A DNA stretch of 64,000 bases from assembly GCA_001782165.1 (NCBI GenBank), contig MFNV01000009.1, positions 122,283 through 186,282 of the forward strand, read 5' to 3'. A program made the position numbers and the translations under genes. The notes below the pieces were generated by a model. It was given only the letters and a program-made list of their open reading frames with translations. It ran no database searches and was not told the origin of the DNA. Positions 6,862 through 61,959 of the stretch are shown here, one piece after another (the first letter of the stretch is position 1; each line of letters begins with the position of its first letter). Source of the DNA: Candidatus Levybacteria bacterium RIFCSPHIGHO2_01_FULL_41_15. Its GTDB lineage: Bacteria > Patescibacteriota > Microgenomatia > Levybacterales > UBA12049.

Positions 6862-8208
6862 ATGATGCAGGATAATAATCAACTTTGGAAAATAATTCTT
6901 AATGAAATAGAAACGGAAGTTTCAAAAGCAAATTTTTTAACACTTTTTAAAAATACTTCTCTTTTGTCTTTTGAAGATAATGTTGCCACAATTTCAGCAC
7001 CCTCTACCATGGTGATTGATCTTCTTCAAAAAAGATTTTATCAAGTTATAAAAAAATCCCTTGATAAGCACCTAAAGGGAAATGCCAATATTATTTTTGT
7101 CCCAAAAGCTATAAACAAAAATGAGGACATTGGTATGGGCCCCCTTTTTGTGGAGGTTTCAAAAACTCCTCTTTTAATAGGACATTTACCCAAGGTCCGA
7201 AAAGACTATACTTTCGATACTCTTGCAGTATCATCAAGTAACCAACTTGCCTATGTTTCTGCTCAAAGTGTAGCCAAAAAACCCGGGTCCTCTTACAATC
7301 CTCTTTTTATATATGGTCCGGTGGGGGTTGGCAAGACCCACCTTATGCATGCCATAGCAAACCACATCTACAAAGAAACCCCTGGCAGAAAAATAGTTTA
7401 TATAACAAGCGAGGAATTTACTAACGAAGTCGTTGAGGCAATAAGAACCAATGACACGGCAAGAATGAAAAGGAAATTTAGAAACACTGATATTCTCATC
7501 ATAGACGACGTTCAGTTTCTTGCAGGAAAGGAAAAGATTCAAGAAGAACTTTTCCATACATTCAACACGCTGGTTGATAAGGAATCTCAAATTGTCTTAT
7601 CTTCCGATAGACCCCCCTCTGACATTAAAAAAATGGAGAAACGTTTATCTTCACGGTTTTCTGGAGGACTAACCGTAGACATTGAACCGCCAGACTTTGA
7701 GCTGAGAACAGCAATACTTCTTATTAAAGCAAAAAAATACAACTTTGACCTACCTATCGAAGTTGCAAAAACAATCGCCGAAAAAATTCTTGACACAAGA
7801 AGTCTTGAGGGAAATCTTTTAAGACTTATGACAGAAATGGAGGCACAAGTTTCTCCGATTGATGTGCTTTTAGATAAAATATTAAAAGGCGAAACACAAA
7901 TAGAGCCTTCCTACCATCACCCTGATGAAATTATCAAAAATCTTTGTAATTTTTACAGAATTAAACCGACCCAAATAAAAAGCCAAAAAAGGAGCGCATC
8001 TCTGGTAAGAGTAAGACAGATAGCAATGTACCTTTTAAGAAAAGAGTTGGGTCTTTCTCTTGTTGAGATAGGAAATATCCTAGGAGGAAGAGATCATACT
8101 ACCATAATGTATGGGGTTGACAAAATCGAAAATCTTTTGGTGGGGGAAGGGTTTTCTGATGAAATCAAAAAGGTTGTTCATTTTAGCAAAACAGGTCGCA
8201 CAAATTAA
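6862..8208 (+). CDS. dnaA: chromosomal replication initiator DnaA
   Basis: 448 aa with Walker A GPVGVGKTHL, the DDVQFLAGKE box, and the C-terminal DnaA DNA-binding signature. Confidence 0.95.
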   Translation: MMQDNNQLWKIILNEIETEVSKANFLTLFKNTSLLSFEDNVATISAPSTMVIDLLQKRFYQVIKKSLDKHLKGNANIIFVPKAINKNEDIGMGPLFVEVSKTPLLIGHLPKVRKDYTFDTLAVSSSNQLAYVSAQSVAKKPGSSYNPLFIYGPVGVGKTHLMHAIANHIYKETPGRKIVYITSEEFTNEVVEAIRTNDTARMKRKFRNTDILIIDDVQFLAGKEKIQEELFHTFNTLVDKESQIVLSSDRPPSDIKKMEKRLSSRFSGGLTVDIEPPDFELRTAILLIKAKKYNFDLPIEVAKTIAEKILDTRSLEGNLLRLMTEMEAQVSPIDVLLDKILKGETQIEPSYHHPDEIIKNLCNFYRIKPTQIKSQKRSASLVRVRQIAMYLLRKELGLSLVEIGNILGGRDHTTIMYGVDKIENLLVGEGFSDEIKKVVHFSKTGRTN

Positions 8209-20057: not shown

Positions 20058-20180
20058 TTTAATTTATTTGGAACTTGTAATTTTGTACTTGTAATTTTCC
20101 TTACTACGTAAGGATATTGTAATCTTCTTGAAAGCTAATTATCAAGCGCTTCGGCTTCGCTAAGTGTAAACTTCCCTCGT

Positions 20181-22963: not shown

Positions 22964-24694
22964 TTATCCTACGCCGAATCTTCGACCGAATGCTCGTAGT
23001 TTTCCGACTTTGCCGTAACTTACCCTTCCTGTTGCTTGATCATAACCTGCCAATCTATATTCCTCAGAACCGGCTATAGTTTGACCTACACCCTTAGCTA
23101 CAGAAATTGGGTAACCTGCTCCCGCTCCAACTGCGGCACCGATTGAGGAGAGGTCGATTTTGGGTGCCTTGAGAGCTTCTCTTAATGTTGTTACAATTCT
23201 TGGCGCAGTCAATATGATTCCAAGGGCAATTATTGCGCCGAAACGCTCTCCATTGGGGTTTCCTATAAAAGGCGGCACGAACATGTCTCCCCCTCCTGCA
23301 TCAAAAAGATGCATAAAAGTCTCTCCCAGAAGGAAAAGAACAAGAGTTGCCGGGAAAGCCGCAAGGTTTGAAATAAGACTTCTGAGCCAGGAGGTAAAGC
23401 TGATTGTACTTCCCGGGAAAAGTCCTGCGACAATCCAGAAAGGCGCAAATACTATGTCTATGAGAATCATTATATAGGCCTGAAGAAGGATAAACCAGAG
23501 TCTAAACAGCGCCCAGAGAATTGCAATAAGAATCACCAGAAATGCAATTATACCGGCCAACCCTCCGATTACGATCTTCCCAGCATAGTTTGTAAGGTCG
23601 CACGCTCCTCCTCCAAATAACCCAAAACCAGAAGTTATAAAATTGAGGGCTCCGCTTAAAAAACCTCCCACAACAGGAAGACTTTCAAAAATCGCACAAG
23701 TACTCCCCGCAACCGCACCAATAGGCCCGGCAAGTATGAAACCAAGTACTGCGGTTATAATACTGCCTAAATAAGTAGTAAAAAGACCTGGGGTGAGACT
23801 GGCTATTATATTACCCACACTATAAGAAGCATTAAACGCAACTGTAAAAATATTAAATGTATCATGCGCAACACTAAAAGGAGAAGTATATAGCCGCGGA
23901 ACATCGTGTTCAAAGATATTTAGGATCAAATATAGGGCGACATACATAAGGTCAATAAGAAAAGCTGCAATTGCAAGAGAGAATGTCACAAGAAGTATCC
24001 CTATAATTAATTTGGGTATTTGGTTCTGCAAAGTCATGACAGTTCGCGGATCTATTTTTACCCTAAGCATTATTGCAACTCCTATAATCACAAAGACAAG
24101 GACAAACAGAAGATATACAATGTCTCTGAATTTACTCCAAAGAGGAATAAGAGGAGAGACTCTGGAGACGCCAAGTCCTGTATTCTGGGCATAAGTACTT
24201 TTTGCTATCCCAAAATTTTGAGCAAGATCTTTCATATAGTCTGCCGCGTGAACAGGAGCCGTATAGAGCATACCGATCATGCCTCCCATAAAACCCACTG
24301 CTCCTCCACCGCCTTCAACAAAGCCGATACTTCCGGTCTTAGGATCAACACCGAGGCATTTTTGTGAGACATTTGTCGGATCAATTCCCGAAAGCTGGCA
24401 GACAAGAGCGGACATTACTTCTATCATCACACTTTGGGTATAAGTATGAAGGTTTTTTGGGACATCAGGATTTGTGTTGGGGGCAGCGTAGGGATTGGTT
24501 TGGTTATTTTGGTAATTGGGTAGATTGGAGTTCGGAATGCTTACTGTCTGAGCAAAAGTTGGGGATTTAAAAATTAAGAATGAAAAAATAAAAAATAAAA
24601 AAACCAAAATAAGATACGGGCCCCACTTCGTTAAAACTTCCACCGTCGCTAAGGCTTTGGCGGACAAGTCGCGGGGCAAGGCAGGAAGTCTCAT
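22964..24694 (-). CDS. polytopic membrane protein, VirB6/TrbL-like candidate
   Basis: 576 aa with a signal/TM start and then ~8-10 TM helices with Gly-rich loops. Its size and topology fit the VirB6/PrgH-class channel subunits usually encoded with VirB4 systems. Confidence 0.4.
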   Translation of the reverse strand: MRLPALPRDLSAKALATVEVLTKWGPYLILVFLFFIFSFLIFKSPTFAQTVSIPNSNLPNYQNNQTNPYAAPNTNPDVPKNLHTYTQSVMIEVMSALVCQLSGIDPTNVSQKCLGVDPKTGSIGFVEGGGGAVGFMGGMIGMLYTAPVHAADYMKDLAQNFGIAKSTYAQNTGLGVSRVSPLIPLWSKFRDIVYLLFVLVFVIIGVAIMLRVKIDPRTVMTLQNQIPKLIIGILLVTFSLAIAAFLIDLMYVALYLILNIFEHDVPRLYTSPFSVAHDTFNIFTVAFNASYSVGNIIASLTPGLFTTYLGSIITAVLGFILAGPIGAVAGSTCAIFESLPVVGGFLSGALNFITSGFGLFGGGACDLTNYAGKIVIGGLAGIIAFLVILIAILWALFRLWFILLQAYIMILIDIVFAPFWIVAGLFPGSTISFTSWLRSLISNLAAFPATLVLFLLGETFMHLFDAGGGDMFVPPFIGNPNGERFGAIIALGIILTAPRIVTTLREALKAPKIDLSSIGAAVGAGAGYPISVAKGVGQTIAGSEEYRLAGYDQATGRVSYGKVGKLRAFGRRFGVG

Positions 24695-24773
24695 CTTATT
24701 TGAGTTTGATATATTAATTAAGAATTGTCAAGAAAGGGAAGCAAATTGCTGGATTGTTAGATTGTTGGAGAAG

Positions 24774-24861
24774 TGCGGAGGAGAGGAGATTCGAACTCCT
24801 GATACGGTTGCCCGTAAACCTGCTCTCCAAGCAAGCGCCATAGGCCACTAGGCGACTCCTC
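24774..24861 (-). tRNA. tRNA-Ser (anticodon GGA)
   Basis: Manual fold: acceptor GGAGGAG/CTCCTCC, anticodon loop TTGGAGA, long variable arm, T-loop TTCGAAT. CCA is not encoded. Confidence 0.8.
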
Positions 24862-24965
24862 CAAAATTAAATTCCAAAATTCGAAATCTTGAATCCTAAA
24901 TAAATCCTAAACCCAAAATTACAAATTTCAAACGATTGGACAATTTAGCAGTCCTTATTATATCA

Positions 24966-25382
24966 TCAGATCAATTTTCTTGCGTTTTGCCAAACTTGCC
25001 TGTCAGATTTATATGTAAGTCTTTCTTCAACTTTTTCAAGAGGGATCCATTCAACGTTCTGCATTTCCCAGTCATGCTCTTTGGTGTCTCCTGACCCGTG
25101 CTCCATAAGAAAATAATAAACAGTTTTTTTAATCTTTTGACCTTGAAAATTATACCAGTATGTAACAGGCTGTAAAGCTTTAATTATTTTCCCATTTATC
25201 CCTGTTTCTTCCTTAACTTCTCTTATTGCAGTTTCTTCTTTACTTTCTTTCTTTTTATGGTCACCGATTACCCCTTTAGGAAATACCCATCCGTGATGGC
25301 CTGAATGCTGAGCGACAAGAATAAATATCTTATCTTTAGATTTTTTATATACTATTCCACCGGCAGAGAACTCGAATTTCAT
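24966..25382 (-). CDS. NUDIX hydrolase
   Basis: 138 aa with the Nudix box GWVFPKGVIGDHKKKESKEETAIREVKEETG. Confidence 0.85.
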   Translation of the reverse strand: MKFEFSAGGIVYKKSKDKIFILVAQHSGHHGWVFPKGVIGDHKKKESKEETAIREVKEETGINGKIIKALQPVTYWYNFQGQKIKKTVYYFLMEHGSGDTKEHDWEMQNVEWIPLEKVEERLTYKSDRQVWQNARKLI

Positions 25383-25496
25383 TTCTTACCCCTCTGTTAA
25401 TATTGGTTTAGTCCACGCTTGTCTTCGCTGACGCTTCGCAAGCGAGCTCCGTCGCTTCGCCCCGTACCAGTCTGGTACAGGGCTTCGCTCGTCCGC

Positions 25497-25522
25497 TCCA
25501 CCTGCAGAAAATTCAAACTTCA
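25497..25522. repeat. direct repeat copy 1 (ccacctgcagaaaattcaaacttcat); on the minus strand it encodes MKFEFSAGG
   Basis: 25/26 identical to the copy at 26056-26081. Both re-encode the first 9 residues of the adjacent NUDIX gene with different synonymous codons. Confidence 0.6.
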
Positions 25523-25529
25523 TGATACA

Positions 25530-25763
25530 TTAGTCTTTCAATAATTTAATAAACTCATCTCTGCCCACCCGTAGATCTCTCTTTATTATTTTTGTTAATA
25601 ATCCGATACCGATCACTTGCGCAGGATGGATTGGAATAGTAGTTCTTCTTCCGTCAGGATGCATATAAATTGCGTGGCTTCCGCTTTGATCGCGAAAAGT
25701 AAATCCAAGTCTTAACACTACCTTAACTAATTCTCTTGCTTTGACTTGAGGAAGTTTTGGCAT
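25530..25763 (-). CDS. hicA: HicA mRNA interferase toxin
   Basis: 77 aa; ...GFTFRDQSGSHAIYMHPDGRRTTIPIHP... matches the HicA/YcfA family. Confidence 0.75.
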   Translation of the reverse strand: MPKLPQVKARELVKVVLRLGFTFRDQSGSHAIYMHPDGRRTTIPIHPAQVIGIGLLTKIIKRDLRVGRDEFIKLLKD

Positions 25764-26014
25764 TAGATAGATACTTCAAGCGAAGTCATACTTACGGGTT
25801 CAACTTTTGGAATATCCTGATGTTCTTTGCGAAGAACCTTTAAATGCAGTTTGATTGCGTCGCGAATATTAGTAATTGCCTGTTCAAGTGTTTTTCCTTG
25901 CGTATGACATCCTGCAAGATCTGGGCAGTCTGCCACAAAAAATCCATCCTCATCCTTTTCAATGATAACCGGAAATTTATAGGTAGTAGTTTTTATTTTT
26001 TGCATTTTTCCCAT
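25763..26014 (-). CDS. hicB: HicB antitoxin (UPF0150 family)
   Basis: 83 aa; KFPVIIEKDEDGFFVADCPDLAGCHTQGKTLEQAITNIRDAIKLHL. Its stop overlaps the hicA start. Confidence 0.7.
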   Translation of the reverse strand: MGKMQKIKTTTYKFPVIIEKDEDGFFVADCPDLAGCHTQGKTLEQAITNIRDAIKLHLKVLRKEHQDIPKVEPVSMTSLEVSI

Positions 26015-26055
26015 ATACTTATTATAACATTTTTAGTTCTTTCCTGCCGACAACT

Positions 26056-26081
26056 CCGCCTGCAGAAAATTCAAACTTCAT
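26056..26081. repeat. direct repeat copy 2 (ccgcctgcagaaaattcaaacttcat), abutting the 3' end of tRNA-Ser(CGA)
   Basis: Read directly; on the minus strand it opens a 19-codon mini-ORF MKFEFSAGGVVGRKELKML*. Confidence 0.6.
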
Positions 26082-26082
26082 G

Positions 26083-26166
26083 CGGAGGGTACAGGATTCG
26101 AACCTGTGAGGGATTACTCCCACGAGTTTTCGAAACTCGCGCCTTAAACCGCTCGGCCAACCCTCC
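26083..26166 (-). tRNA. tRNA-Ser (anticodon CGA)
   Basis: Acceptor GGAGGGT/ACCCTCC, anticodon loop TTCGAAA, long variable arm, T-loop TTCGAAT, discriminator G. Confidence 0.8.
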
Positions 26167-26181
26167 AATTTTATTAAATTG

Positions 26182-26255
26182 CACCCTCGAAAGGATTCGA
26201 ACCTTCGACCTCGACGTCCGCAACGTCGCGCTCTATCCAACTGAGCTACGAGGGC
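26182..26255 (-). tRNA. tRNA-Arg (anticodon GCG)
   Basis: Manual fold: acceptor GCCCTCG/CGAGGGT (G1-U72), D-arm GCTCAGTTGGATAGAGC, anticodon stem-loop CGACG-TTGCGGA-CGTCG, 5-nt variable loop, T-loop TTCGAAT. Confidence 0.6.
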
Positions 26256-26341
26256 ATCCTCTAACCGTCCCGCCAGAGGCGGGATGCTACTATCCGTTGA
26301 ACTACGGGCACAAAGTGGTTTTTATTCTATCTAATTTTAGA

Positions 26342-26953
26342 TTATGAAGCAACTTTTGTGTTCTCAAGAGGAAAATTTTTGGAAAGAAAATTTCCTGCAT
26401 TTTCCATAAAAGTAGGTTTTATCACCTCTCTATAGGGAAGATACGGTAGGAGAACAGATCTTACGTGCTCTACGTCAAGGTTGCCAAGCGGAACAGTCAA
26501 AACACCCGGAATAAAAGCATGCGTTCTCACATGAAGAACTTCTATTCCTTCCACCCTTTTAAAATAAAAATCATAAAGCTCCTGCCATAAAAAGAAATGA
26601 TCTTCAATTGTTATGCCCTCTGTTGAGATCCGATAATGAAAATTATGAGGGGGGACAATGGCAAGTGCAAAGGCAACAAAAACAAGAGACAGGACTACAA
26701 GCATCAAAAGATATTGGGAGAATAAAAATAAAATAACTTGGACAAGAAGCATTATAAGAAGGCTAGTTAGAAAGTATTGCTTAGTTCTTTTCTTGTACGG
26801 TCTTCCGGGAGCGGTCCAGGACAAAAGGGTTTTTATATGGGGATATTGCGTTTCCGCCTGAAGTTCTAAAGGCTCTTTGGGAAGGTCTGCCTTGCCGGCA
26901 GGCAGGTCTCTGGCTTCTTTGGGAAATAATTTTTCCTCTTTTTGGGCAGCCAT
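26342..26953 (-). CDS. membrane protein of unknown function
   Basis: 203 aa with two central TM helices and a ~100-aa C-terminal domain. Confidence 0.4.
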   Translation of the reverse strand: MAAQKEEKLFPKEARDLPAGKADLPKEPLELQAETQYPHIKTLLSWTAPGRPYKKRTKQYFLTSLLIMLLVQVILFLFSQYLLMLVVLSLVFVAFALAIVPPHNFHYRISTEGITIEDHFFLWQELYDFYFKRVEGIEVLHVRTHAFIPGVLTVPLGNLDVEHVRSVLLPYLPYREVIKPTFMENAGNFLSKNFPLENTKVAS

Positions 26954-27000
26954 AAGTTTAATTTATAGGATTAGGAGGAATTAGTCAATGGCGAATAGAA

Positions 27001-27327
27001 CTAGATTCTGGCAGCGTAATTGAAGGCGTAAAAGTATTTTTTAAAAGAGCTATCAGTGGAAAGATATTGATTGTCTAAATACCAGTCAACAAGAACCTCT
27101 CGCATACGGCATAGTTCTTTGAGCCGCATGCGGTTTTTTGGGTCTTTTAGAGTTAGATCAATTAGCTCCAATGCCCGCTCGAATGCCAATTTTTGATATT
27201 GTTTATTACCTTTATTCTTCCAGATTATAGTCCGCTCAACTTCACTACCTATATTAGCCATTTGTTCTACGAGCCTCATATTAAACCAGTGTTTTTTGGA
27301 TAAATTTTTATGATAGATAAGATTCAT
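27001..27327 (-). CDS. small hypothetical protein (downstream member of an overlapping two-gene module)
   Basis: 108 aa, predicted helical. Its start overlaps the upstream 113-aa ORF by 4 nt (ATGA). Confidence 0.35.
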   Translation of the reverse strand: MNLIYHKNLSKKHWFNMRLVEQMANIGSEVERTIIWKNKGNKQYQKLAFERALELIDLTLKDPKNRMRLKELCRMREVLVDWYLDNQYLSTDSSFKKYFYAFNYAARI

Positions 27328-27665
27328 CTTTGAACTAACTTATTTATTATTTGAATTATTTTTTTTTGAATTTTCGGATCATCAACACCACGAGAGTAAT
27401 TGTCTTGTGATGGCTTAAGATTGATCATTGAATCAAATTCGATAAAATCATCGCCCTTTTTTTCTGGATAGAGATTAATACCCCATAAATCTTCCTGCTT
27501 AGATCCACGCTGCAATAAATATTGCTCTTCGTCGGCATGCAGTTCGGCGTTGATCACCATTATTTCTTTTTTAACATCAATAACTGCCTTGACCAAAATA
27601 CCAAACATTCTTTTGGCCATTCTTTTAATTTCTAGAATACTGATTTTTTTTTCAACAACTTTCAT
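27324..27665 (-). CDS. small hypothetical protein (upstream member of an overlapping two-gene module)
   Basis: 113 aa, translationally coupled to the 108-aa ORF. Architecture is toxin-antitoxin-like, but no family was recognised. Confidence 0.35.
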   Translation of the reverse strand: MKVVEKKISILEIKRMAKRMFGILVKAVIDVKKEIMVINAELHADEEQYLLQRGSKQEDLWGINLYPEKKGDDFIEFDSMINLKPSQDNYSRGVDDPKIQKKIIQIINKLVQR

Positions 27666-27892
27666 AAAACCATTCTAACATGCCAAAGATATTGCTTCAA
27701 TGATTTGATCCCGGGGATCATGGCAGAGGAGTATTATTTTCTGTTGGAGTTTAAGATTTTTTCTAGTCGATTTCTTATGTTTACCAACTGGCGGTGGGAG
27801 TGAGATTCACTTCGGCTCCGCTCAGTGTAAACTTCTCATCCCATTTACACTTCGCCAATCTCAGAACATAAAGTCCTGAGCTTGTCGAAGGG

Positions 27893-27979
27893 CGGTGGGA
27901 GTGAGATTCGAACTCACGGCGGCATTGCTGCCACAATGGTTTTCAAGACCATCCGGATAAACCACTCCCGCATCCCACC
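27893..27979 (-). tRNA. tRNA-Ser (anticodon TGA)
   Basis: Acceptor GGTGGGA/TCCCACC, anticodon stem-loop ATGGT-CTTGAAA-ACCAT, long variable arm, T-loop TTCGAAT. Confidence 0.8.
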
Positions 27980-27984
27980 AAATG

Positions 27985-28072
27985 CGGAGAGGGTGGGATT
28001 CGAACCCACGCGAGCCTTGCGGCTCAGGGGATTAGCAATCCCCCGCAATGGACCAAACTATGCGACCTCTCC
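27985..28072 (-). tRNA. tRNA-Ser (anticodon GCT)
   Basis: Acceptor GGAGAGG/CCTCTCC, anticodon stem-loop GGGGA-TTGCTAA-TCCCC, long variable arm, T-loop TTCGAAT. Confidence 0.8.
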
Positions 28073-28152
28073 AAAATCAGCCGTTAGCAATTAGCCACTA
28101 GCTGTTAGCAGTATTATACCATCAAAACTCTAATTTTTGCTACACTGATATT

Positions 28153-28848
28153 GTGGATTTCTTAGATATCTTTTTCCCAAAATATTGCGTAAATTGTAAA
28201 AAATTGGGCGATTATATTTGCTCTGACTGTTTTTCCTTTCTGTCTTTTGATGTGGAGAAGATTTGCGCTGTTTGTAACCTCCCTACTTTTAATAACCTGA
28301 CTCACCCAAGGTGCAGGAAAAGATATACGATTGACGGAGTTTTTTCAAGTATTTCCTATAAGGGGACAGCCAAAAAACTGATCTATAACTTCAAATATAA
28401 CCCCTATGTTTCGGATTTGGAAAAACTTTTGACGGACATTTTTTACGAAGGACTTATCCAAAAAGAGGAGTTTCACAAAGTTTTAAATTCTCAAAAAGTA
28501 GTTTTGGTGCCAATTCCGCTCTATCATTTAAGAGAAAGAAAAAGGGGATACAACCATGCTTCTATTTTAGCTGAGCAAATTTCAAAGAAATTAAATATCC
28601 CTGTTTGTAAAGTTTTAGAGCGCATAAAAAACACAAAAACACAAGTAAATTTAGACAAGGAGGAGAGGAAAAAAAATTTAAAAAATGCTTTTGTGATTGC
28701 CCCTGAGTTCAAAAATAAACTTAAAGGCAGAGAGGTTTTTCTAGTGGATGATGTATTTACCACTGGCTCAACCCTTTTGGAGGCGGCAAATACTTTAAAA
28801 AGAAGCGGAGTAAAAAAGGTCTTCGGTTTGACTTTAGCGAGGGGTTGA
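28153..28848 (+). CDS. comFC: ComF-family protein (double zinc-ribbon + phosphoribosyltransferase domain)
   Basis: 231 aa with an N-terminal CxxC...CxxC pair and C-terminal PRTase motif VFLVDDVFTTGSTL. Confidence 0.75.
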   Translation: MDFLDIFFPKYCVNCKKLGDYICSDCFSFLSFDVEKICAVCNLPTFNNLTHPRCRKRYTIDGVFSSISYKGTAKKLIYNFKYNPYVSDLEKLLTDIFYEGLIQKEEFHKVLNSQKVVLVPIPLYHLRERKRGYNHASILAEQISKKLNIPVCKVLERIKNTKTQVNLDKEERKKNLKNAFVIAPEFKNKLKGREVFLVDDVFTTGSTLLEAANTLKRSGVKKVFGLTLARG

Positions 28849-28866
28849 GATATAATACGCCTACTT

Positions 28867-29266
28867 GGGGATGCATTGCATCGACAGGAAAGCACATTAA
28901 AAACTGCAAGCCGACTTTGATGACAGTCGTCCCGCTGATAGTTTTCAGTCGGGATCCCGCCATCGGCGGTGATAAAACAGGGTCAAAAAATAAATGCTAA
29001 CGATCAAAAGTTAGCGTACGCATTTGCTTATAATTAAGTAATTTCGTACTGTTCATTAAATCTTTTCTCAACGAGATTTTATGGGCATAAATAAAGTTGA
29101 GATATAAATAAAAAGTTGGTTGGCTTTTTATCCGAAAATTTCAACCTTTGCTTTGTTTGTTTCCTTCCGATTTGGAGAAAATAAAGCGAGACTTAAAAAT
29201 CGGATAAGCTTGTAGATGTTTTTGGTTCGGCTTTCTTGGACTCGAGCTCACAGCTCGACATCTCCA
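28867..29266 (+). ncRNA. ssrA: tmRNA (transfer-messenger RNA)
   Basis: 5' GGGGAUG...AUCGACAGG tRNA-like start. 3' T-stem-loop TCGAG-CTCACAG-CTCGA, then CATCTCC-A, giving a G3-U70 wobble and A73 discriminator (tRNA-Ala identity). The internal AAAAAAUAAAU-GCU AAC GAU... block parallels E. coli AAAAAAUAGUC-GCA AAC GAC. Predicted tag reading frame 28996-29037 encodes (A)NDQKLAYAFAYN*. The element sits in a 490-bp ORF-free gap 1.0 kb from smpB. Confidence 0.65.
28931..28978 (+). repeat. 48-nt double-hairpin element, copy A (inside the tmRNA pseudoknot-1 region)
   Basis: gtcccgctgatagttttcagtcgggatcccgccatcggcggtgat has two stem-loops. A second copy lies at 53656-53703 with compensatory changes. 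Confidence 0.5.
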
Positions 29267-53569: not shown

Positions 53570-53655
53570 ATAATAATTTAATTAAGTCCAAATGTCCAAA
53601 ATCCAAAACAGTTTTGGTATTAGAATTTTTTATTTTGTATTTATTTGTGATTTGT

Positions 53656-53703
53656 CCCGCTGGTAGTTTCCAGCCGGGATCCCGCAATTGCGGTGAGAAT
53701 TTT
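53656..53703 (+). repeat. 48-nt double-hairpin element, copy B
   Basis: gtcccgctggtagtttccagccgggatcccgcaattgcggtgag. Same two stem-loops as copy A with compensatory substitutions (ctga/tcag to ctgg/ccag; ccgcc/ggcgg to ccgca/tgcgg). It lies 87 nt after the gap stop; copy A lies 83 nt after the comF stop. Confidence 0.5.
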
Positions 53704-58864: not shown

Positions 58865-59410
58865 ATGAATAAAGATTTTGCTAATAATTTAGTTAATACC
58901 CCAGATTACGAGCATGAACCTTTCGATATGAGTGAACTAAAACCTTTAACTGTTTATCCTAATGCAATGAATTCTGGCGCAGCTATTTATCCAGCAACTA
59001 TAGTTGAAGGACCGATAGATAATTTCGGAACAGCAGTTGCTCAAGGCAATATGGGTCAAGATTTTTATCCTACTACGGTTAGCGGGACTACCTCTGTTTA
59101 TTCAAATTCTAATATTAATTCATGCACTTCGGTCTCGTTAAGGACTATTTCAGAGGGCTTTCATAAAGGAGATGGACATAATCTAGGAGAATTGTCGGGG
59201 TCAACCTTTCTAGCTAAGCCCACCACAGAGCAATATCAAACCAAAGATAAAAGCTGTACAAATAGTAAATCTAATTTTTATAAAATAGAAATTAAATATG
59301 ACCTTGCCAAAAAGCCTAACTACAAAAACGCAGATCAAATTGCAAAAGTGGATTTACACAAATTTCTTAGATACAGCCACGTGCAGTTTCTAGCTGAATA
59401 TTATTTATGA
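58865..59410 (+). CDS. hypothetical protein in the nrdR-nrdJ operon
   Basis: 181 aa, rich in Ser/Thr/Asn; its stop overlaps the nrdJ start. Confidence 0.4.
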   Translation: MNKDFANNLVNTPDYEHEPFDMSELKPLTVYPNAMNSGAAIYPATIVEGPIDNFGTAVAQGNMGQDFYPTTVSGTTSVYSNSNINSCTSVSLRTISEGFHKGDGHNLGELSGSTFLAKPTTEQYQTKDKSCTNSKSNFYKIEIKYDLAKKPNYKNADQIAKVDLHKFLRYSHVQFLAEYYL

Positions 59411-61959
59411 AACTTGATGGAATAAGAAATAAAGTGTTTTTGGACAGATATGCTTTAAAGGGCGAAAAGGGCGAACTTCTTGAACAAACCCCAGAGCAAA
59501 TGTGGACAAGAGTTGCCCATGGCATTGCAGGCAATGAGAAGACCAAAGACAGAAAGCATTGGGAGAAAAAATTCTACGATGTAATGAAGGATTTTAAATT
59601 TGTTCCCGGAGGAAGAATCTTATCAGGAGGAGGAACAGACTATCAAGTAACCTACTTTAATTGTTTTGTAATACCGTCTCCAAAGGATTCAAGAGAAGGA
59701 ATCTTAGAATCCTTAAAACAGCTTGTTGAAATTCAATCAAGATCAGGTGGAGTAGGTCTTAGTCTTTCTTCTTTAAGACCTCGGGGAGCAAGAGTTAAGA
59801 AAGTAAACGGAACATCCTCAGGCCCTGTTACGTGGGCAGGACTCTTTTCCTATGCAACTCATGATGTGGTTCAGCAGGGAGGAACCCGACGCGGTGCGAC
59901 AATGCTCATGCTTTGGGATTGGCATCCTGATATCGAAGAGTTTATTACCGTAAAACAGGACCTTTCCAGGATAAATGGGGCAAACCTTTCGGTATGTATT
60001 TCAGACGCCTTTATGGAAGCAGTCAAAAAAGATGCAGATTGGGATTTGGTTTATCCTGACCTTGATGACCTAAGATATGATGAAAAATGGAACGGAGAGA
60101 TAGATCAATGGAAAAAAATGGGCGGCAAAGTGAAAATCTACAAAACCGTAAAGGCAAGGTATCTATGGAATCTTATTTGTGAAGCCGCCTGGGGATCTGC
60201 TGAGCCGGGGTTGCATTTTCTTGAGCGGAGCAACAAAAGAAGCAACACTTGGTATTTTGAAAGGCTTGTTGCGACAAACCCTTGCGGAGAGCAGCCTTTG
60301 GGACCATGGGCGGTATGCAACCTTGGGGCAATGAATTTGGCATCTTATGTAAAAGTGGATAGCCAGTTTGATTACAAACAGTTAGGAGAAGATGTAAAGG
60401 TTGCGATAAGATTTTTAGACAATGTTATTGATAAGACTTATTACTTTTTCAAAGAGAACAAAAAATGTGCCAAAGATATAAGAAGGACAGGTCTTGGGAT
60501 AATGGGACTTGGAGACGCTCTTATAAAGATGAAAGTTCGTTATGGTTTGGATGAATCTCTTAAAATTATTGATAAAATATTCGAGACCCTTAGAAACAGC
60601 GCCTATGAGGCATCCTCAGAAATTGCCAAAGAGAAAGGCCCTTTCCCTAAATTTGATAAAACTAAATATCTTAAGGGGTATCATATAAAAGAATTGCCCG
60701 CCGCTATCCGAAAAAAGATAAGTCGGTACGGGATAAGAAATGCCGTTCTTCTTACAATTGCTCCAACAGGTACTACTTCTCTTCTTGCGGGAGTGACCTC
60801 GGGAATCGAACCCGTGTATGAATTTACATTTATAAGAAGGGACAGGACAGGCGAGCATGTTATGTATCATCCACTCTTTGAGGAATGGAAAAAAGAAAAC
60901 GCTGGCAAAGAAAAATCCTTCGACTCCGCTCAGGACAGGCCTGATTACTTCGTTTCGGCAAATGATCTGACTCCTCTTGAGCATGCCCAAGTTCAGGCAG
61001 TTGCCCAAAAATATATTGATGCATCAATTTCAAAAACAGTGAATGCACCAAGCTCCCATACAGTCGAGGATGTAAAAACCCTGTACATGGCAGCATATGA
61101 CTTAGGACTTAAAGGAGTAACATACATGAGAGAGGGGTCAAGAGAAGGAGTTTTATCAAGAGTGGATGAAAAGAAAGATAAAGAAAAGGTTGATAAATCA
61201 CAAAGACCAACTGCTCCACGACCCATACAGCTTGAAGGAGTAACTTACAGGGTAGAAACTCCTTTAGGCAAGACTTACATAACTATAAATCATGATGAAA
61301 ATAGAGAACCGTTTGAAGTGTTCATTACTATAGGAAAAACCGGATCAGATATTTCCGCAATGGCAGATGCCTTGGGTAGATTAATTTCCGTAAATTTAAG
61401 ACTCTCAGGCGGACTCTCTCCAAGAGAAAGAATAAGACAGATAGTTGCTCAGCTTGCGGGGATTGGAGGAGCAAGAAGTGTCGGATTTGGAAAAGATAGG
61501 GTAAGATCTTTGCCCGATGCGGTCTCAAAAATTCTTGCAATGCATTTTGGTTTTGCAGTTAATGGTCTTGTAGAGGATAAAAACCTGTCTTTGGGCCCGC
61601 TTCGCAGCGAGGCGAGCAAGGCAGAAATTGAACAGAATGGACAATTGAGTGGAGTTTTGGCAAATGGAGTAGACGGAAGAGTCCGCCTGCCCTCTGATCC
61701 TCATCTTACTGCCGAAGGACTTGGCAGGGATAGGGAAATAGCAAATGGGGAAATCGAAGTAAGAAAGGACGAGGAAAAAGAGGAAGAGGTAATTAAGATG
61801 CAGCAACTTGCCCTGGTAGGTAAAGCCTCAGGAGTTAATCAAGAATTTTCTGATTCCGGAACAGGGCTTTATGATATTTGCCCTGAGTGTGGAGGAGGAA
61901 GCTTAGCGTACGAAGAAGGCTGCCGCAAATGTTATAGCTGCGGTTATGCCGAATGCTAA
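59407..61959 (+). CDS. nrdJ: adenosylcobalamin-dependent ribonucleotide reductase (class II)
   Basis: 850 aa with class II RNR motifs (GGTRRGATM, NPCGEQPL, thiyl-radical Cys) and a C-terminal Zn-ribbon CPECGG...CRKCYSCG. Confidence 0.85.
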   Translation: MKLDGIRNKVFLDRYALKGEKGELLEQTPEQMWTRVAHGIAGNEKTKDRKHWEKKFYDVMKDFKFVPGGRILSGGGTDYQVTYFNCFVIPSPKDSREGILESLKQLVEIQSRSGGVGLSLSSLRPRGARVKKVNGTSSGPVTWAGLFSYATHDVVQQGGTRRGATMLMLWDWHPDIEEFITVKQDLSRINGANLSVCISDAFMEAVKKDADWDLVYPDLDDLRYDEKWNGEIDQWKKMGGKVKIYKTVKARYLWNLICEAAWGSAEPGLHFLERSNKRSNTWYFERLVATNPCGEQPLGPWAVCNLGAMNLASYVKVDSQFDYKQLGEDVKVAIRFLDNVIDKTYYFFKENKKCAKDIRRTGLGIMGLGDALIKMKVRYGLDESLKIIDKIFETLRNSAYEASSEIAKEKGPFPKFDKTKYLKGYHIKELPAAIRKKISRYGIRNAVLLTIAPTGTTSLLAGVTSGIEPVYEFTFIRRDRTGEHVMYHPLFEEWKKENAGKEKSFDSAQDRPDYFVSANDLTPLEHAQVQAVAQKYIDASISKTVNAPSSHTVEDVKTLYMAAYDLGLKGVTYMREGSREGVLSRVDEKKDKEKVDKSQRPTAPRPIQLEGVTYRVETPLGKTYITINHDENREPFEVFITIGKTGSDISAMADALGRLISVNLRLSGGLSPRERIRQIVAQLAGIGGARSVGFGKDRVRSLPDAVSKILAMHFGFAVNGLVEDKNLSLGPLRSEASKAEIEQNGQLSGVLANGVDGRVRLPSDPHLTAEGLGRDREIANGEIEVRKDEEKEEEVIKMQQLALVGKASGVNQEFSDSGTGLYDICPECGGGSLAYEEGCRKCYSCGYAEC

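Follow-up and report, generated by a model that had tools for sequence, protein, structure and literature searches.

The RtT repeats behind the tyrosine tRNA genes of E. coli (the 178-bp repeats of the tyrT-tyrV operon; RF00391; rttR, tpr) have long been unexplained. At the tyrT/tyrV locus of E. coli K-12 the 19-nt sequence AATCCTTCCCCCACCACCA occurs six times, and in the Rfam RtT consensus (GgGaaGGAUGAGAAcCUUCGA...CCCGaAGggCGAgG...UaAUCCuuCcCccaCCACCA) an antisense arm and a tRNA copy form the outer helix. REP and Rickettsia palindromic element (RPE) families are lineage-specific. Integrase-mediated insertion at a tRNA gene displaces its 3' fragment, att sites carry no tRNA-tailored antisense arm, and direct repeats from the T-loop to the 3' end are said, in work by Williams from 2002, to be the usual identity block of tRNA-targeting islands. 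It has been reviewed that RPEs insert in frame into protein genes (PMC10969869), and the part of PMC3318445 that cites Bosl and Kersten (1991) gives E. coli rtT RNA as a processed, stable transcript.

The DNA analysed here comes from the genome of a Candidatus Levybacteria bacterium (CPR), an uncultured groundwater organism; the whole stretch of 64,000 nucleotides is called the window. A first-pass annotation had described all four tRNA-Ser isoacceptors and tRNA-Arg(GCG) as clustered, interleaved with hicAB, a membrane protein and an overlapping small-ORF pair, and had read the cluster as a hotspot of integrase-mediated insertion. The cluster was confirmed, the five tRNAs (all on the minus strand) being found by both ARAGORN and the Rfam tRNA model (50-65 bits), and the interleaved genes are present as judged by coordinates and Pfam (HicA, HicB, DUF5674). 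The best explanation overall, with a probability of about 0.6, is an ancestral tRNA array carrying an RtT-like unit, a tRNA-Arg remnant and an acquired hicAB, without a resident integrase. The array and the genes within it are as follows.

24775-24862, minus strand, tRNA-Ser(GGA) (ARAGORN and Rfam tRNA model)
24966-25382, minus strand, Nudix hydrolase gene, a backbone gene (Pfam NUDIX, E=1e-18)
26082-26166, minus strand, tRNA-Ser(CGA) (ARAGORN and Rfam tRNA model)
26181-26255, minus strand, functional tRNA-Arg(GCG) of the L033/L034 sequence type (ARAGORN, Rfam tRNA model and sequence comparison)
26342-26953, minus strand, 203-aa membrane protein, a backbone gene (no Pfam match; orthologues in relatives)
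27001-27327, minus strand, 108-aa ORF overlapping the DUF5674 gene
27324-27665, minus strand, DUF5674 gene (Pfam DUF5674, E=3e-32)
27890-27980, minus strand, tRNA-Ser(TGA) with the unusual acceptor stem GGTGGGA/TCCCACC (ARAGORN and Rfam tRNA model)
27984-28072, minus strand, tRNA-Ser(GCT), adjoining ComF as in relatives (ARAGORN, Rfam and synteny)

The recurring order is P926, 576-aa gene, Ser-GGA, Nudix, [Arg-CCG], Ser-CGA, Arg-GCG, membrane protein, ..., Ser-TGA, Ser-GCT, ComF; it is present in whole or in part in eight relatives (L022, L023, L027, L029, L033, L034, L036 and L037), whose ComF proteins are 46-58% identical. The Ser/Arg tRNA cluster and most of its neighbour genes are kept across the class. 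Clustering of the four Ser isoacceptors with Arg is an ancestral, conserved backbone of Levybacteria and therefore was not assembled by mobile elements. In relatives that carry it, the Nudix gene sits between Ser-CGA/Arg-CCG and Ser-GGA (synteny in L022, L023, L027, L034, L036 and L037; L029 and L033 likewise have the gene), and orthologues of the membrane protein (56-68% identity) lie beside tRNA-Arg(GCG) or within the cluster in 10 relatives. The membrane protein, the Nudix gene and the downstream 576-aa and 926-aa genes are syntenic backbone, not cargo.

The spaces between the tRNAs differ among relatives, some holding GIY-YIG nuclease genes, transporters or glycosyltransferases. They are empty in L021, whose gene map also lacks the variable pair of 108-aa ORF and DUF5674 gene; relative L241 has a 108-aa ORF at the same position, a likeness of length and place that does not imply homology. 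Among the relatives compared, only this species has hicAB between these tRNAs. L007, a contig of the same population, parts from the others precisely at the tRNA-Ser(GGA) 3' end (24775), which is a strain-level breakpoint, and contigs L005 and L017 end at 24792, inside the same gene. Over all 4 kb of the region, 19 fetched loci (ENA, JGI and NCBI records) are 99.5-100% identical, some of them being one contig fetched twice; all of these loci, and every contig with the exact arrangement of the window, come from a single aquifer population.

Upstream of the complete tRNA-Arg(GCG) gene two further features were located.

26256-26311, minus strand, truncated tRNA-Arg(GCG) pseudogene, positions 1-53 (alignment to L240)
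26324-26352, minus strand, putative promoter of the Arg-Ser tRNA operon: TTGCTT, 17-nt spacer, TAGAAT (conservation)

A tRNA-like remnant had been placed at 26256-26335. The remnant is real, but it ends at 26311; 26312-26352 is the conserved putative promoter region, without tRNA-like sequence. It aligns to the intact tRNA-Arg(GCG) that stands behind the same promoter in L240, its anticodon arm is replaced by a perfect GC hairpin (TCCCGCC-TCT-GGCGGGA), and it is broken off in the T-arm, just before the T-loop. That it lacks a full cloverleaf held up: a complete third tRNA was looked for, and neither ARAGORN nor Rfam (E<=1) called any tRNA there. A homologous remnant is present in L022. It is the 5' part of an older tRNA-Arg(GCG) gene ahead of the second, complete one, and after the break at the T-arm it now serves as the 5' leader of the working gene. 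The segment 26324-26352 was assigned as a probable promoter from conservation, with identical hexamers and spacing before tRNA-Arg(GCG) in L022, L023, L027, L029, L033, L034, L036 and L240; it was absent from the list given by a consensus promoter scan.

The 19-nt sequence GGCGGTGGGAGTGAGATTC occurs exactly twice in the window, at 27891-27909 and at 27790-27808, with a gap of 82 nt. The first-pass annotation was right in calling the distal one a perfect copy of the tRNA-Ser(TGA) 3' end, but its coordinates (27786-27804) were off by 4, and the copy does not lie about 90 nt past the tRNA. In 100 shuffles no copy of the 19-mer was found, even with 3 mismatches allowed, and the duplicate is reproduced across ENA, JGI and NCBI assemblies, all of the one aquifer population. 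The parts of the unit are as follows.

27790-27808, minus strand, distal 19-nt copy of the tRNA-Ser(TGA) 3' end, 3' arm of helix P1 (repeat search, pair counts)
27809-27834, minus strand, conserved module AAGTTTACACTGAGCGGAGCCGAAG plus T, hairpin P2 (metagenome pattern matches)
27835-27843, minus strand, TGGGAT antisense arm plus invariant GAG junction (alignment, pair counts)
27844-27890, minus strand, left part of the 82-nt insert: CTTCGACAAGCTCAGGAC motif, small hairpin, GTGTAAA (fold z-score -4.1)

The 3' arm is the tRNA copy, which begins at G57 in the T-loop and ends with the discriminator and CC; the base after that completes CCA. The 5' arm is an antisense sequence tailored to tRNA positions 59-67; six base pairs, one of them G-U, join its TGGGAT to AUCUCA in the copy. 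Its pairing includes loop positions 59-60 and acceptor positions 66-67, so the arm complements the 3' region of the tRNA and does not copy the T-stem 5' strand. Between the arms lies a conserved GC-rich module, GAG-AAGUUUAC-(hairpin CNCU/AGNG), and G57 of the copy takes part in the last pair of P2. Of 77 distinct instances, 72 have every pair of P2 formed, with C:G, A:T and G:T variants; the sequences fall into essentially two states, which might reflect two clonal lineages instead of compensation that arose repeatedly. In the left part, CTTCGACAAGCTCAGGAC is the inverted partner of the module and GTGTAAA pairs with TTTACAC; homologous left parts are found in L149, L193, L158 and L022, and an 18-mer of it is present in 72 viral contigs. 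When the structure was tested over 13 pairs, 84% of cells were paired and 9 pairs varied on both sides; the observed pairing score was reached by 0 of 500 shuffles, and slid controls were 34-55% paired. A covariance model built here (R1) scores 67 bits on the unit of the window. These data show that the 82 nt and the 19-nt copy form a hairpin element, probably one unit of an RtT-like tRNA-trailer element.

The same structure stands behind the tRNA-Ser(TGA) of L022 (tRNA, insert of about 88 nt, 19-nt copy), where the copy fits the acceptor stem of L022 (CCTCTCC), not that of the window (TCCCACC). The pattern AAGTTTACNCTNAGCGNAGNCGAAG matched more than 118 metagenome stretches, and the tRNA-copy architecture was seen in 23 of 77 distinct instances; as the search fixed most module positions, the apparent invariance of the module is partly ascertainment. 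Among the scanned loci, 17 have an intact tRNA immediately upstream. Many genomes have the same hairpin architecture, which follows at least 11 tRNA species (Ser-tga, Ser-cga, Leu, Gln, Asp, Lys, Trp, Arg-cct, Arg-tct, Met and Tyr), each element carrying a 3'-end copy of the tRNA that hosts it, and is sometimes in tandem (units of 60-100 nt in L120, L142, L166, L187 and L193). In L182 and L187 the repeat extends past the tRNA end, and in L119, L140 and L157 units lie next to decayed or absent tRNAs with no intact tRNA upstream, so the structure may have arisen by more than one route. Behind tRNA-Ser(TGA) the unit is present in only 2 of about 12 Levybacteria loci, and elsewhere different tRNAs carry it. 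Copies of the module and of its partner motif are also seen inside hairpin loops, immediately before tRNAs and, in frame, within protein genes. Near 80 related loci, no transposase, integrase or reverse transcriptase was found to recur. Judged from sequence, then, the "duplicated tRNA end" appears to be a unit of a widespread repeat resembling RtT, not a phage-integration scar.

The hicAB genes are bracketed by repeats of a different kind, which the first-pass annotation did not mention.

25355-25383, minus strand, repeat copy A, the working Nudix start, resident sequence type (repeat search)
25384-25495, minus strand, 112-nt GC-rich, CGAAG-rich structured insert between copies B and A (fold z-score -3.65)
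25496-25524, minus strand, repeat copy B, donor type (97% identical to copy C)
25530-25763, minus strand, HicA (Pfam HicA)
25763-26014, minus strand, HicB (Pfam HicB)
26037-26082, minus strand, copy C, a dead 5' fragment (about 45 nt) of a donor-type Nudix gene (MKFEFSAGGVVGRKE), abutting tRNA-Ser(CGA)

The region around the Nudix start codon recurs as a 29-nt direct repeat in three copies (25355-25383, 25496-25524 and 26054-26082), which bracket hicAB and the 112-nt insert; copy A differs from copies B and C at synonymous positions only. The DNA of hicAB is 92.9% identical to that of L240, a sympatric relative, versus 72.7% for the adjacent Nudix gene. Copy B is contiguous with hicAB within this match, and over 33 nt copy C matches the Nudix start of L240 at 97% identity. 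Across Microgenomates, HicB homologues show 75-95% identity, a promoter-like match at 26021-26050 is hicAB's own, and the relatives fetched through ComF lack hicAB at this site. By these identities hicAB is demonstrably a foreign cassette that was acquired laterally; its entry may have been by recombination anchored in conserved tRNA and Nudix sequences of the incoming DNA. The 112-nt insert, missing from all relatives compared, provides the GAGGGG ribosome-binding site of the Nudix gene and holds 3 of the window's 11 GCGAAGC heptamers.

An integrase hotspot, with the 19-nt repeats as attL/attR of a tyrosine-integrase element in tRNA-Ser(TGA) decayed to 82 nt and with the remnant and hicAB as further scars, is quite unlikely. 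Part of the case for it stands: the repeat spans the T-loop to the tRNA 3' end like the usual identity block of islands, between-tRNA content differs between species, the contig of the same population breaks exactly at the tRNA-Ser(GGA) 3' end, and 29-nt repeats flank the foreign hicAB. However, the clustering is ancestral, and the search for a cognate integrase detected no tyrosine recombinase within 64 kb, nor is one recurrent near the 80 related loci. The repeats enclose only 82 nt, and an identical G57 junction occurs behind at least 11 tRNA species, each with its own 3' end; one insert with eleven different tRNA ends therefore cannot be explained by a single integrase and attP. Unlike att sites, the insert has an antisense arm tailored to each tRNA, and decay of an island would not be expected to leave 60-100-nt units in tandem arrays. 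The remnant, moreover, is a 5' tRNA fragment, whereas integration displaces the 3' fragment.

A functional, vertically evolving structured RNA, a regulatory or processing tRNA trailer whose arms are kept matched by selection without mobility, is rather doubtful. It always points the same way as the tRNA, its helices covary, nucleotides that stay unpaired are conserved from phylum to phylum, G-U pairs fall on the tRNA-sense strand, the copy follows different acceptor stems in the window and L022, and E. coli rtT RNA is processed and stable as cited above; but its sporadic distribution, its tandem arrays, its persistence beside decayed or absent tRNAs, and the occurrence of module and partner motif in loops, before tRNAs and in frame in genes are the behaviour of selfish DNA. 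That the 19-nt repeat and the remnant are coincidental, or mis-assembled at repetitive tRNA sequence, is highly improbable: L005 and L017 do break inside tRNA-Ser(GGA), where assemblers struggle, but the shuffles gave no 19-mer match, assemblies from different assemblers at ENA, JGI and NCBI agree, and the architecture recurs in unrelated projects and in the finished E. coli K-12 genome.

In the preferred reading, the ancestral Levybacteria array (Arg-GCG, Ser-CGA, Ser-GGA, Ser-TGA, Ser-GCT) would have gathered three kinds of small scars, the RtT-like unit, the tRNA-Arg remnant and hicAB, none of them made by a resident integrase. The module may be a non-autonomous GC-rich palindromic element joined specifically to T-loops, and its insertions would survive only when the tRNA 3' end is duplicated alongside, because duplication would keep the tRNA intact. 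The antisense arm might be a product of templated synthesis, fold-back or quasi-palindrome, and the direct repeats would let units expand, contract or excise by recombination. The unit is predicted to be co-transcribed with the tRNA; by analogy with E. coli rtT RNA, tRNA 3' processing could free a small hairpin RNA with a tRNA-like 3' tail.

Compared with known systems, the hicAB cassette shares with HicAB type II toxin-antitoxin cassettes the Pfam pair HicA_toxin and HicB_lk_antitox, a one-base gene overlap, an own promoter-like site and a patchy distribution; its proteins are ordinary, and it differs in being bracketed by repeats of the first 27-45 nt of a neighbour gene. With tRNA-targeting islands and prophages (tyrosine integrase, att core from T-loop to tRNA 3' end) the unit shares a direct repeat of the 3' part of the tRNA from the T-loop and a complete tRNA kept on one side, whereas the small span between repeats, the lack of an integrase, the one insert family for many tRNAs, the tRNA-specific antisense arm and the tandem arrays set it apart. 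REP/REPIN, MITEs and RPE resemble it in GC-rich hairpins with inverted termini (CTTCGAC..GCTCAG / CTGAGC..GNCGAAG), in units that nest within each other's loops and in mostly intergenic and tRNA-flanking positions; as in RPE, the partner motif here inserts in frame into protein genes. In contrast to REP and RPE, the same 18-25-nt sequences here are shared across phyla and by DNA of 0.28 to 0.71 GC content; no RAYT or transposase was found with them, and flanking duplications are long (18-45 nt).

The Rfam RtT model matched neither the window (E<=1) nor any of 14 related loci (E<=10), and model R1 did not match the E. coli RtT units; neither model bridges the families, and kinship with RtT therefore rests on architecture and short motifs. 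In both, the units lie on the same strand immediately 3' of the tRNA and can be tandem, and each closes with a 19-nt copy of the tRNA 3' end beginning in the T-loop. In both, the outer helix is formed by the upstream arm, which is exactly antisense to nucleotides of the T-loop, T-stem and acceptor, an AUGAGAA(G/C) junction follows this arm (GGAUGAGAAG in the E. coli RtT/tyrT repeats too), and the interior is rich in CUUCGAC, CGAAGG and GCGAAGCG motifs. The interior here is about 30 nt (module AAGUUUACNCUGAGCGNAGNCGAAG) versus about 100 nt in RtT, the copy begins at G57 versus A58, and the CCA end is not always encoded. RtT stands behind tRNA-Tyr of enterobacteria, whereas the element described here stands behind many tRNA species in CPR and other uncultured lineages.

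The first-pass annotation had read a 19-nt copy of the tRNA-Ser(TGA) 3' end, together with a tRNA-like remnant near tRNA-Arg, as the mark of integrase-mediated insertion at tRNA genes. The copy itself holds up: the repeat is exact and unique in the window (27790-27808 is identical to 27891-27909, with no match in shuffled sequence), and only its placing needs correction, the coordinates having been 4 nt off and the gap being 82 nt. Across 19 loci fetched from the same population, in some cases one contig twice, the 4-kb region that contains it is 99.5-100% identical. Since the repeat is identical across the ENA, JGI and NCBI records, it is not an accident of assembly, and the duplicate is thus reproduced in independent assemblies of one population. 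The 82-nt insert folds with an energy of -29.3 kcal/mol (z = -4.1 against shuffles) and is bounded, as MITE/REP-like elements are, by inverted repeats, CTTCGACAAGCTCAG at its start and CTGAGCGGAGCCGAAG at its end; none of the Rfam families, ribozymes included, matched it. In the orientation of the tRNA, the unit runs tRNA ... GUGAG-UUCGAAU-CUCAC-UCCCACC-G-CC, then CUUCGACAAGCUCAGGAC, a small hairpin, ... GUGUAAA, UGGGAU, GAG, AAGUUUACACUGAGCGGAGCCGAAG-U, GAAUCUCACUCCCACCGCC(A). Behind the tRNA-Ser(TGA) of the Levybacteria relative L022 the arrangement is the same, and there the copy has the acceptor sequence of L022, CCTCTCC, not the TCCCACC of the window.

The conserved GC-rich sequence inside the unit (27809-27834) is called the module here, and its inverted counterpart at the left end of the insert the partner motif. 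A metagenome scan with a conserved 25-mer gave more than 118 stretches, and results were returned from 80 loci. They contain 77 distinct module instances, 23 of them with the full architecture, and an intact tRNA was found by ARAGORN directly upstream in 17 of the loci scanned. The tRNA species bearing the unit are Ser-tga, Ser-cga, Leu-tag, Gln-ctg, Asp-gtc, Lys-ctt, Trp-cca, Arg-cct, Arg-tct, Met-cat and Tyr-gta. Without exception, a single base separates the module from a copy of the tRNA in question, and the copy begins at T-loop G57. Units stand in tandem at L120, L142, L166, L187 and L193, and the upstream tRNA is decayed or missing at L119, L140 and L157. Two of the loci, L120 (1 kb) and L151 (3.3 kb), are dense arrays of about 12-20 tRNA genes ending in tandem RtT-like units behind tRNA-Leu(TAG). 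Within the 64-kb window there are a single full unit, a single module fragment (20146-20174) and a single in-frame partner motif (60918-60933). The fragment, on the minus strand, is a partial module, GAAGTTTACACTTAGCGAAGCCGAAG, that directly precedes the 926-aa gene's start codon and scores 22.8 bits with R1, the covariance model made in this analysis. Module matches in the phage and plasmid collections were partial and unannotated only, and no published literature was found on the motif sequence or on tRNA-targeting MITEs.

Helix support was drawn from an ungapped alignment of 23 units. In helix P1, positions 59-67 of the copied tRNA pair with the stretch just 5' of GAG; the second helix, P2, is a hairpin of 4 bp within the module, with G57 in its last pair. 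P1 and P2 together are paired in 84% of cells, with changes on both sides in 9 of 13 pairs, and helix 1 in 77%, with such changes in 8 of 9. The observed pairing score was reached by 0 of 500 shuffles, and slid controls were 34-55% paired. The 5' arm pairs with T-loop nucleotides 59-60, U:A becoming C:G where the loop is GAGUC instead of GAAUC, and also with acceptor nucleotides 66-67; in L172 its complementarity is perfect at a point where the T-stem of the tRNA itself has a G-U pair. Rather than duplicating the T-stem 5' strand, the 5' arm is therefore antisense to the tRNA 3' region. Of the 77 instances, 72 have P2 intact, among them C:G, A:T and two G:T variants. The GAG junction is invariant in 23 of 23 units, which were selected on GAG, and the invariance of the module is partly by design because the search pattern fixed most of its positions.

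These data bear on several ways in which the unit could have arisen. Duplication of a whole T-arm, with the module dropped into the loop, is weakened because positions 59-60 and 66-67 are complemented by the 5' arm but not by the T-stem 5' strand. Derivation of the copy from cDNA of the mature tRNA is rejected, since the repeat runs well past the tRNA end in L182 and L187. As for an integrase, the direct repeat of a tRNA 3' part that an island would leave is present, but it bounds 82 nt only. An attachment site (attP) would link one family with one tRNA, but the same module stands behind 11 tRNA species, each time with the 3' end of that tRNA. A XerC/D-like probe (phmmer, E<=10) had no match in 64 window ORFs; no integrase family was among the 25 families listed of the 87 matched in Pfam by 56 window proteins, and no transposase was seen. 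All-against-all clustering of the ORFs of the 80 loci gave housekeeping families only, with no recurrent transposase, integrase or reverse transcriptase. With an antisense arm, 11 tRNA hosts and no linked recombinase detected, the 19-nt copy does not serve as an integrase signature, and we put the probability that the unit is RtT-like, and not an integrase scar, at about 0.75. Short tRNA 3'-end copies are routinely called integrase att scars in island detection, which can mislead, at least in these genomes.

The remnant, at 26256-26311 on the minus strand, does not hold as an integrase signature either. A sympatric relative (L239-L242) was reached through HicB homologues. Its intact tRNA-Arg(GCG), in L240, with the promoter TTGCTT, 17-nt spacer and TAGAAT as in the window, reads GTGCCCGTAGTTCAAAGGATAGAACACCTGGTTGCGGTCCAGGCGGTTGGAGGTTCGACTCCTCTCGGGCACGC, and window 26311-26258 aligns to positions 1-53 of this ordinary tRNA, colinearly, at the same genomic position and with a homologous promoter ahead. 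The anticodon arm of the remnant is replaced by a perfect GC hairpin, TCCCGCC-TCT-GGCGGGA. The remnant ends just before the T-loop, its missing 3' part is absent from the window, and a complete tRNA-Arg(GCG) of another sequence type (L033/L034) starts two bases on. A homologous remnant, with a similar hairpin at a different position, is present in L022. From the alignment and the truncation, the remnant is a truncated pseudogene, now a 5' leader. A split or armless tRNA was rejected because the complementary 3' strand is absent from the window and the sequence aligns to the ordinary tRNA-Arg of L240; tRNA-Arg(TCT), suggested by the TCT in the loop, was rejected because a perfect 7-bp stem with a 3-nt loop replaces the anticodon arm CCTGG-TTGCGGT-CCAGG. 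The breakpoints are alike, the remnant being cut, and the Ser-TGA copy begun, in the T-arm.

NCBI assembly GCA_001783985.1 (contig MFOS01000001.1), from the Rifle aquifer, matches the window; this Candidatus Levybacteria genome (Microgenomates/CPR) has a GC content of 38%. Five minus-strand tRNAs in the array are called by both ARAGORN and Rfam (Ser-GGA, Ser-CGA, Arg-GCG, Ser-TGA and Ser-GCT), so that the Ser/Arg cluster first noticed is confirmed; the interleaved NUDIX, HicA, HicB and DUF5674 genes were confirmed in Pfam, where the 203-aa and 108-aa proteins had no family. With ComF as anchor, 25 loci from species-level genomes were obtained. The backbone order is 926-aa protein, 576-aa membrane protein, Ser-GGA, Nudix, [Arg-CCG], Ser-CGA, Arg-GCG, 203-aa membrane protein, a variable stretch, Ser-TGA, Ser-GCT and ComF, and it recurs, wholly or partly, in Levybacteria with ComF only 46-58% identical. 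Since the order is kept in such distant relatives, the four Ser isoacceptors and Arg were not brought together by insertion, and neither the membrane protein, which had been taken for accessory cargo, nor the Nudix gene is cargo.

Four gaps vary, namely behind Ser-GGA, from Ser-CGA/Arg-CCG to Nudix, from Ser-TGA to the membrane protein, and from Ser-GCT to Ser-TGA; in relatives they contain GIY-YIG nuclease genes, an EamA transporter, a glycosyltransferase-like protein or nothing. The tRNA-Arg(CCG) of L022, L023, L027 and L037 is missing from the window. L007, a contig of the same population, departs from the window exactly at the last base of tRNA-Ser(GGA). Two small ORFs (L007 5006-5530), one with a weak RHH match and one without a Pfam match, there replace the 576-aa/T4SS-like neighbourhood found in the window at 24775 and below; the far end of this variant is off the contig. 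Window 405-24694, adjoining the array, has a T4SS-like set (four T4SS_pilin genes, PrgI, TraG P-loop and DUF4012) and dnaA (6862-8208). The two genes closest to the tRNA, at the least, are conserved in relatives, and that part is therefore backbone, not island. In L002 the 4-kb region has one gap and the 576-aa ORF a shorter call (487 aa). ARAGORN also placed a tRNA-Ser with anticodon ACT beside tRNA-Ser(GCT) in three Levybacteria (L029 9209-9294, L036 9203-9288, L038 9203-9288) and, at the equivalent place in L033 (7662-7753), a tRNA with a long, Ser-type variable arm and anticodon TCT; these could be pseudogenes or unusual decoders.

A HicB-like antitoxin (PF15919, E=1e-13) adjacent to a HicA toxin (PF07927, E=1e-16) forms a HicAB toxin-antitoxin pair, around which a 29-nt repeat of the Nudix start is present in three copies. 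Copy C adjoins tRNA-Ser(CGA), at the place of the Nudix start in relatives, and runs on as a dead Nudix fragment of about 45 nt; then follow hicB-hicA with a promoter-like site, copy B, a 112-nt CGAAG-rich structured insert (fold z = -3.65), and copy A with the working Nudix gene. Copies B and C are one base apart, and copy A departs from both at seven positions, each of them synonymous. The block of hicAB and copy B is 92.9% identical to L240 over 547 nt, whereas the Nudix genes are only 72.7% identical; in L240, hicAB lies directly ahead of that organism's Nudix, and HicB homologues of 75-95% identity occur across several Microgenomates classes. The difference between block and Nudix, with the spread of HicB, indicates that hicAB was laterally acquired together with donor-type Nudix starts. 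It may have entered on incoming DNA that recombined at conserved tRNA/Nudix sequence and was closed by an illegitimate second join, or else through site-specific recombination by an enzyme encoded elsewhere. This CPR locus documents lateral transfer of a toxin-antitoxin system and partial gene duplications, with breakpoints clustered at T-loops and gene starts. What survives of the proposed integration hotspot is the variable gaps, the foreign hicAB and the strain breakpoint; both signatures on which it relied, the 19-nt copy and the remnant, are lost to it.

The 18-mer CTTCGACAAGCTCAGGAC, which makes up the left end of the insert, is the inverted counterpart of the module core and occurs in 72 viral contigs of widely differing GC. 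In low-GC viral contigs (L050 7399-7416, L074 178-195, L104 9053-9070) this 18-mer lies within the first few codons after the ATG of apparent ORFs (e.g. M-N-E-I-LRQAQD-K; compare the L037 Nudix). The partner motif is in frame in the Nudix gene twice in L022 (PSTGSGQ) and once in L023 (PSAGSGQ), and in L027 and L037 it stands, as LRQAQD, directly behind MKFEFSAGGIV. The Nudix orthologues with the in-frame motif are:

L022, 5133-5612
L023, 5143-5574
L027, 292-774
L037, 5493-5924

As a 21-24-nt motif, CCCTTCGACA(A/G)GCTCAGG(G/A)CAAG, it occupies three in-frame Nudix positions in two reading frames (PSTGSGQ/PSAGSGQ; LRQAQD), and so acts like miniature Rickettsia palindromic elements. At window 60918-60933 (plus strand), within the ribonucleotide reductase gene (59407-61959), an in-frame TCCTTCGACTCCGCTCAGGACAGG of the same family as the insert's left end is read SFDSAQDR. 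Module-like hairpins adjoin tRNA 5' ends in L126, L181 and L029, one occupies the entire Ser-CGA/Arg-CCG spacer of L022, and modules are nested within CTTCGAC|GCTCAG motifs and other GC hairpins. Other GC-rich sequences in the window are one of roughly 48 nt with two hairpins, GTCCCGCTG.TAGTTT.CAG.CGGGATCCCGC.AT..GCGGTGA, just downstream of gene ends at both 28928-28975 and 53653-53702; a palindromic patch (24615-24700) forming the apparent N-terminus of the 576-aa ORF; and another (26869-26930, CTGCCTTGCCGGCAGGCAGG) in frame within the N-terminal part of the 203-aa membrane protein. In the Sphingomonas parapaucimobilis plasmid NZ_CP155752.1 (L236 1486-1935), a small GIY-YIG gene lies between inverted CTGAGCGAAGTCGAAG copies and overlaps an RNA methyltransferase gene, its annotated C-terminus being translated motif. 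GIY-YIG genes lie between tRNAs in L022, L023, L024 and L129, and most GIY-YIG genes have no module nearby; a GIY-YIG nuclease as the cognate enzyme of the module is only suggestive, a lead and not a result.

The way in which we propose that the unit is generated is tentative, somewhat short of even odds. A specific process would join the module to T-loops, and the insertion would be tolerated only where the tRNA 3' end (at Nudix, the gene start) is duplicated, leaving one intact copy. The antisense arm may come from templated fold-back or from quasi-palindrome correction, and the direct repeats would drive expansion, contraction and precise loss of units. The unit would be part of the tRNA transcript and be released from it as a hairpin RNA bearing a tRNA-like tail. 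The composite picture of the locus, that is the RtT-like unit, the remnant and the hicAB scars with this proposed generation, seems to us somewhat favoured on balance. Bolder, and in our view unlikely as a whole, is the suggestion that RtT-like units are a widespread, undescribed tRNA-linked class from CPR to E. coli, in which a templated (fold-back or guide-like) mechanism would join the module at T-loop 57 of almost any tRNA gene, writing the antisense arm and duplicating the 3' end. Its products would be small RNAs whose 3' tail resembles a tRNA; the same machinery would spread the related 18-24-nt motif (CCCTTCGACAAGCTCAGGRCAAG), also in frame into protein genes, and the small GIY-YIG nucleases recurring in these tRNA clusters would be a candidate enzyme. 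The most interesting result, which goes beyond the first-pass annotation, is a widespread RtT-like tRNA-trailer element, accompanied by a related family of GC-rich motifs that enters coding sequences as well.

Knowledge of the repeats that follow the E. coli tyrT tRNA genes, each of which closes with the final 19 nt of the tRNA, goes back to about 1980. In the K-12 tyrT-tyrV region, the last 19 nt of tRNA-Tyr (AATCCTTCCCCCACCACCA) are present six times, and Rfam gives four RtT units at 133-138 bits. According to Bosl and Kersten (1991), as cited in PMC3318445 and bioRxiv 10.1101/2024.07.17.603846, rtT RNA is a discrete stable RNA freed from the primary tRNA transcript; it corresponds to one repeat unit of the tyrT operon (PMC3318445), and it has no established mode of action, its function still being described as unknown (bioRxiv 10.1101/2024.07.17.603846). 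The RtT consensus is GgGaaGGAU-GAGAAc-CUUCGAcc ... CCCGaAGggCGAgG ... Ua-AUCCuuCcC-ccaCCACCA, and in the Rfam structure line its outer helix pairs GGGGAAGGAU with AUCCUUCCCC. The RtT model (RF00391, gathering threshold 45 bits) had no match in window 24000-28600 at E<=1, nor in 14 related loci at E<=10, and R1 did not match the E. coli RtT units. As neither model bridges both groups, the element is filed as built like RtT and presumably working like it, and not as a member of RF00391. With an RtT architecture recurring behind many tRNAs in lineages that are distant and mostly uncultured, what was a curiosity of one locus becomes a family, which opens the comparison of conserved nucleotides, of the tRNAs affected and of co-occurring genes. 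The parallel is architectural: like the RtT unit, the window unit stands immediately 3' of a tRNA gene, in the same orientation, and closes with an approximately 19-nt tRNA 3'-end copy begun in the T-loop, and window-type units share with RtT the tailored antisense arm that reaches the acceptor strand and forms an outer helix with the tRNA copy, the AUGAGAA(G/C) junction, the CUUCGAC and CGAAGG motifs, and tandem repetition.
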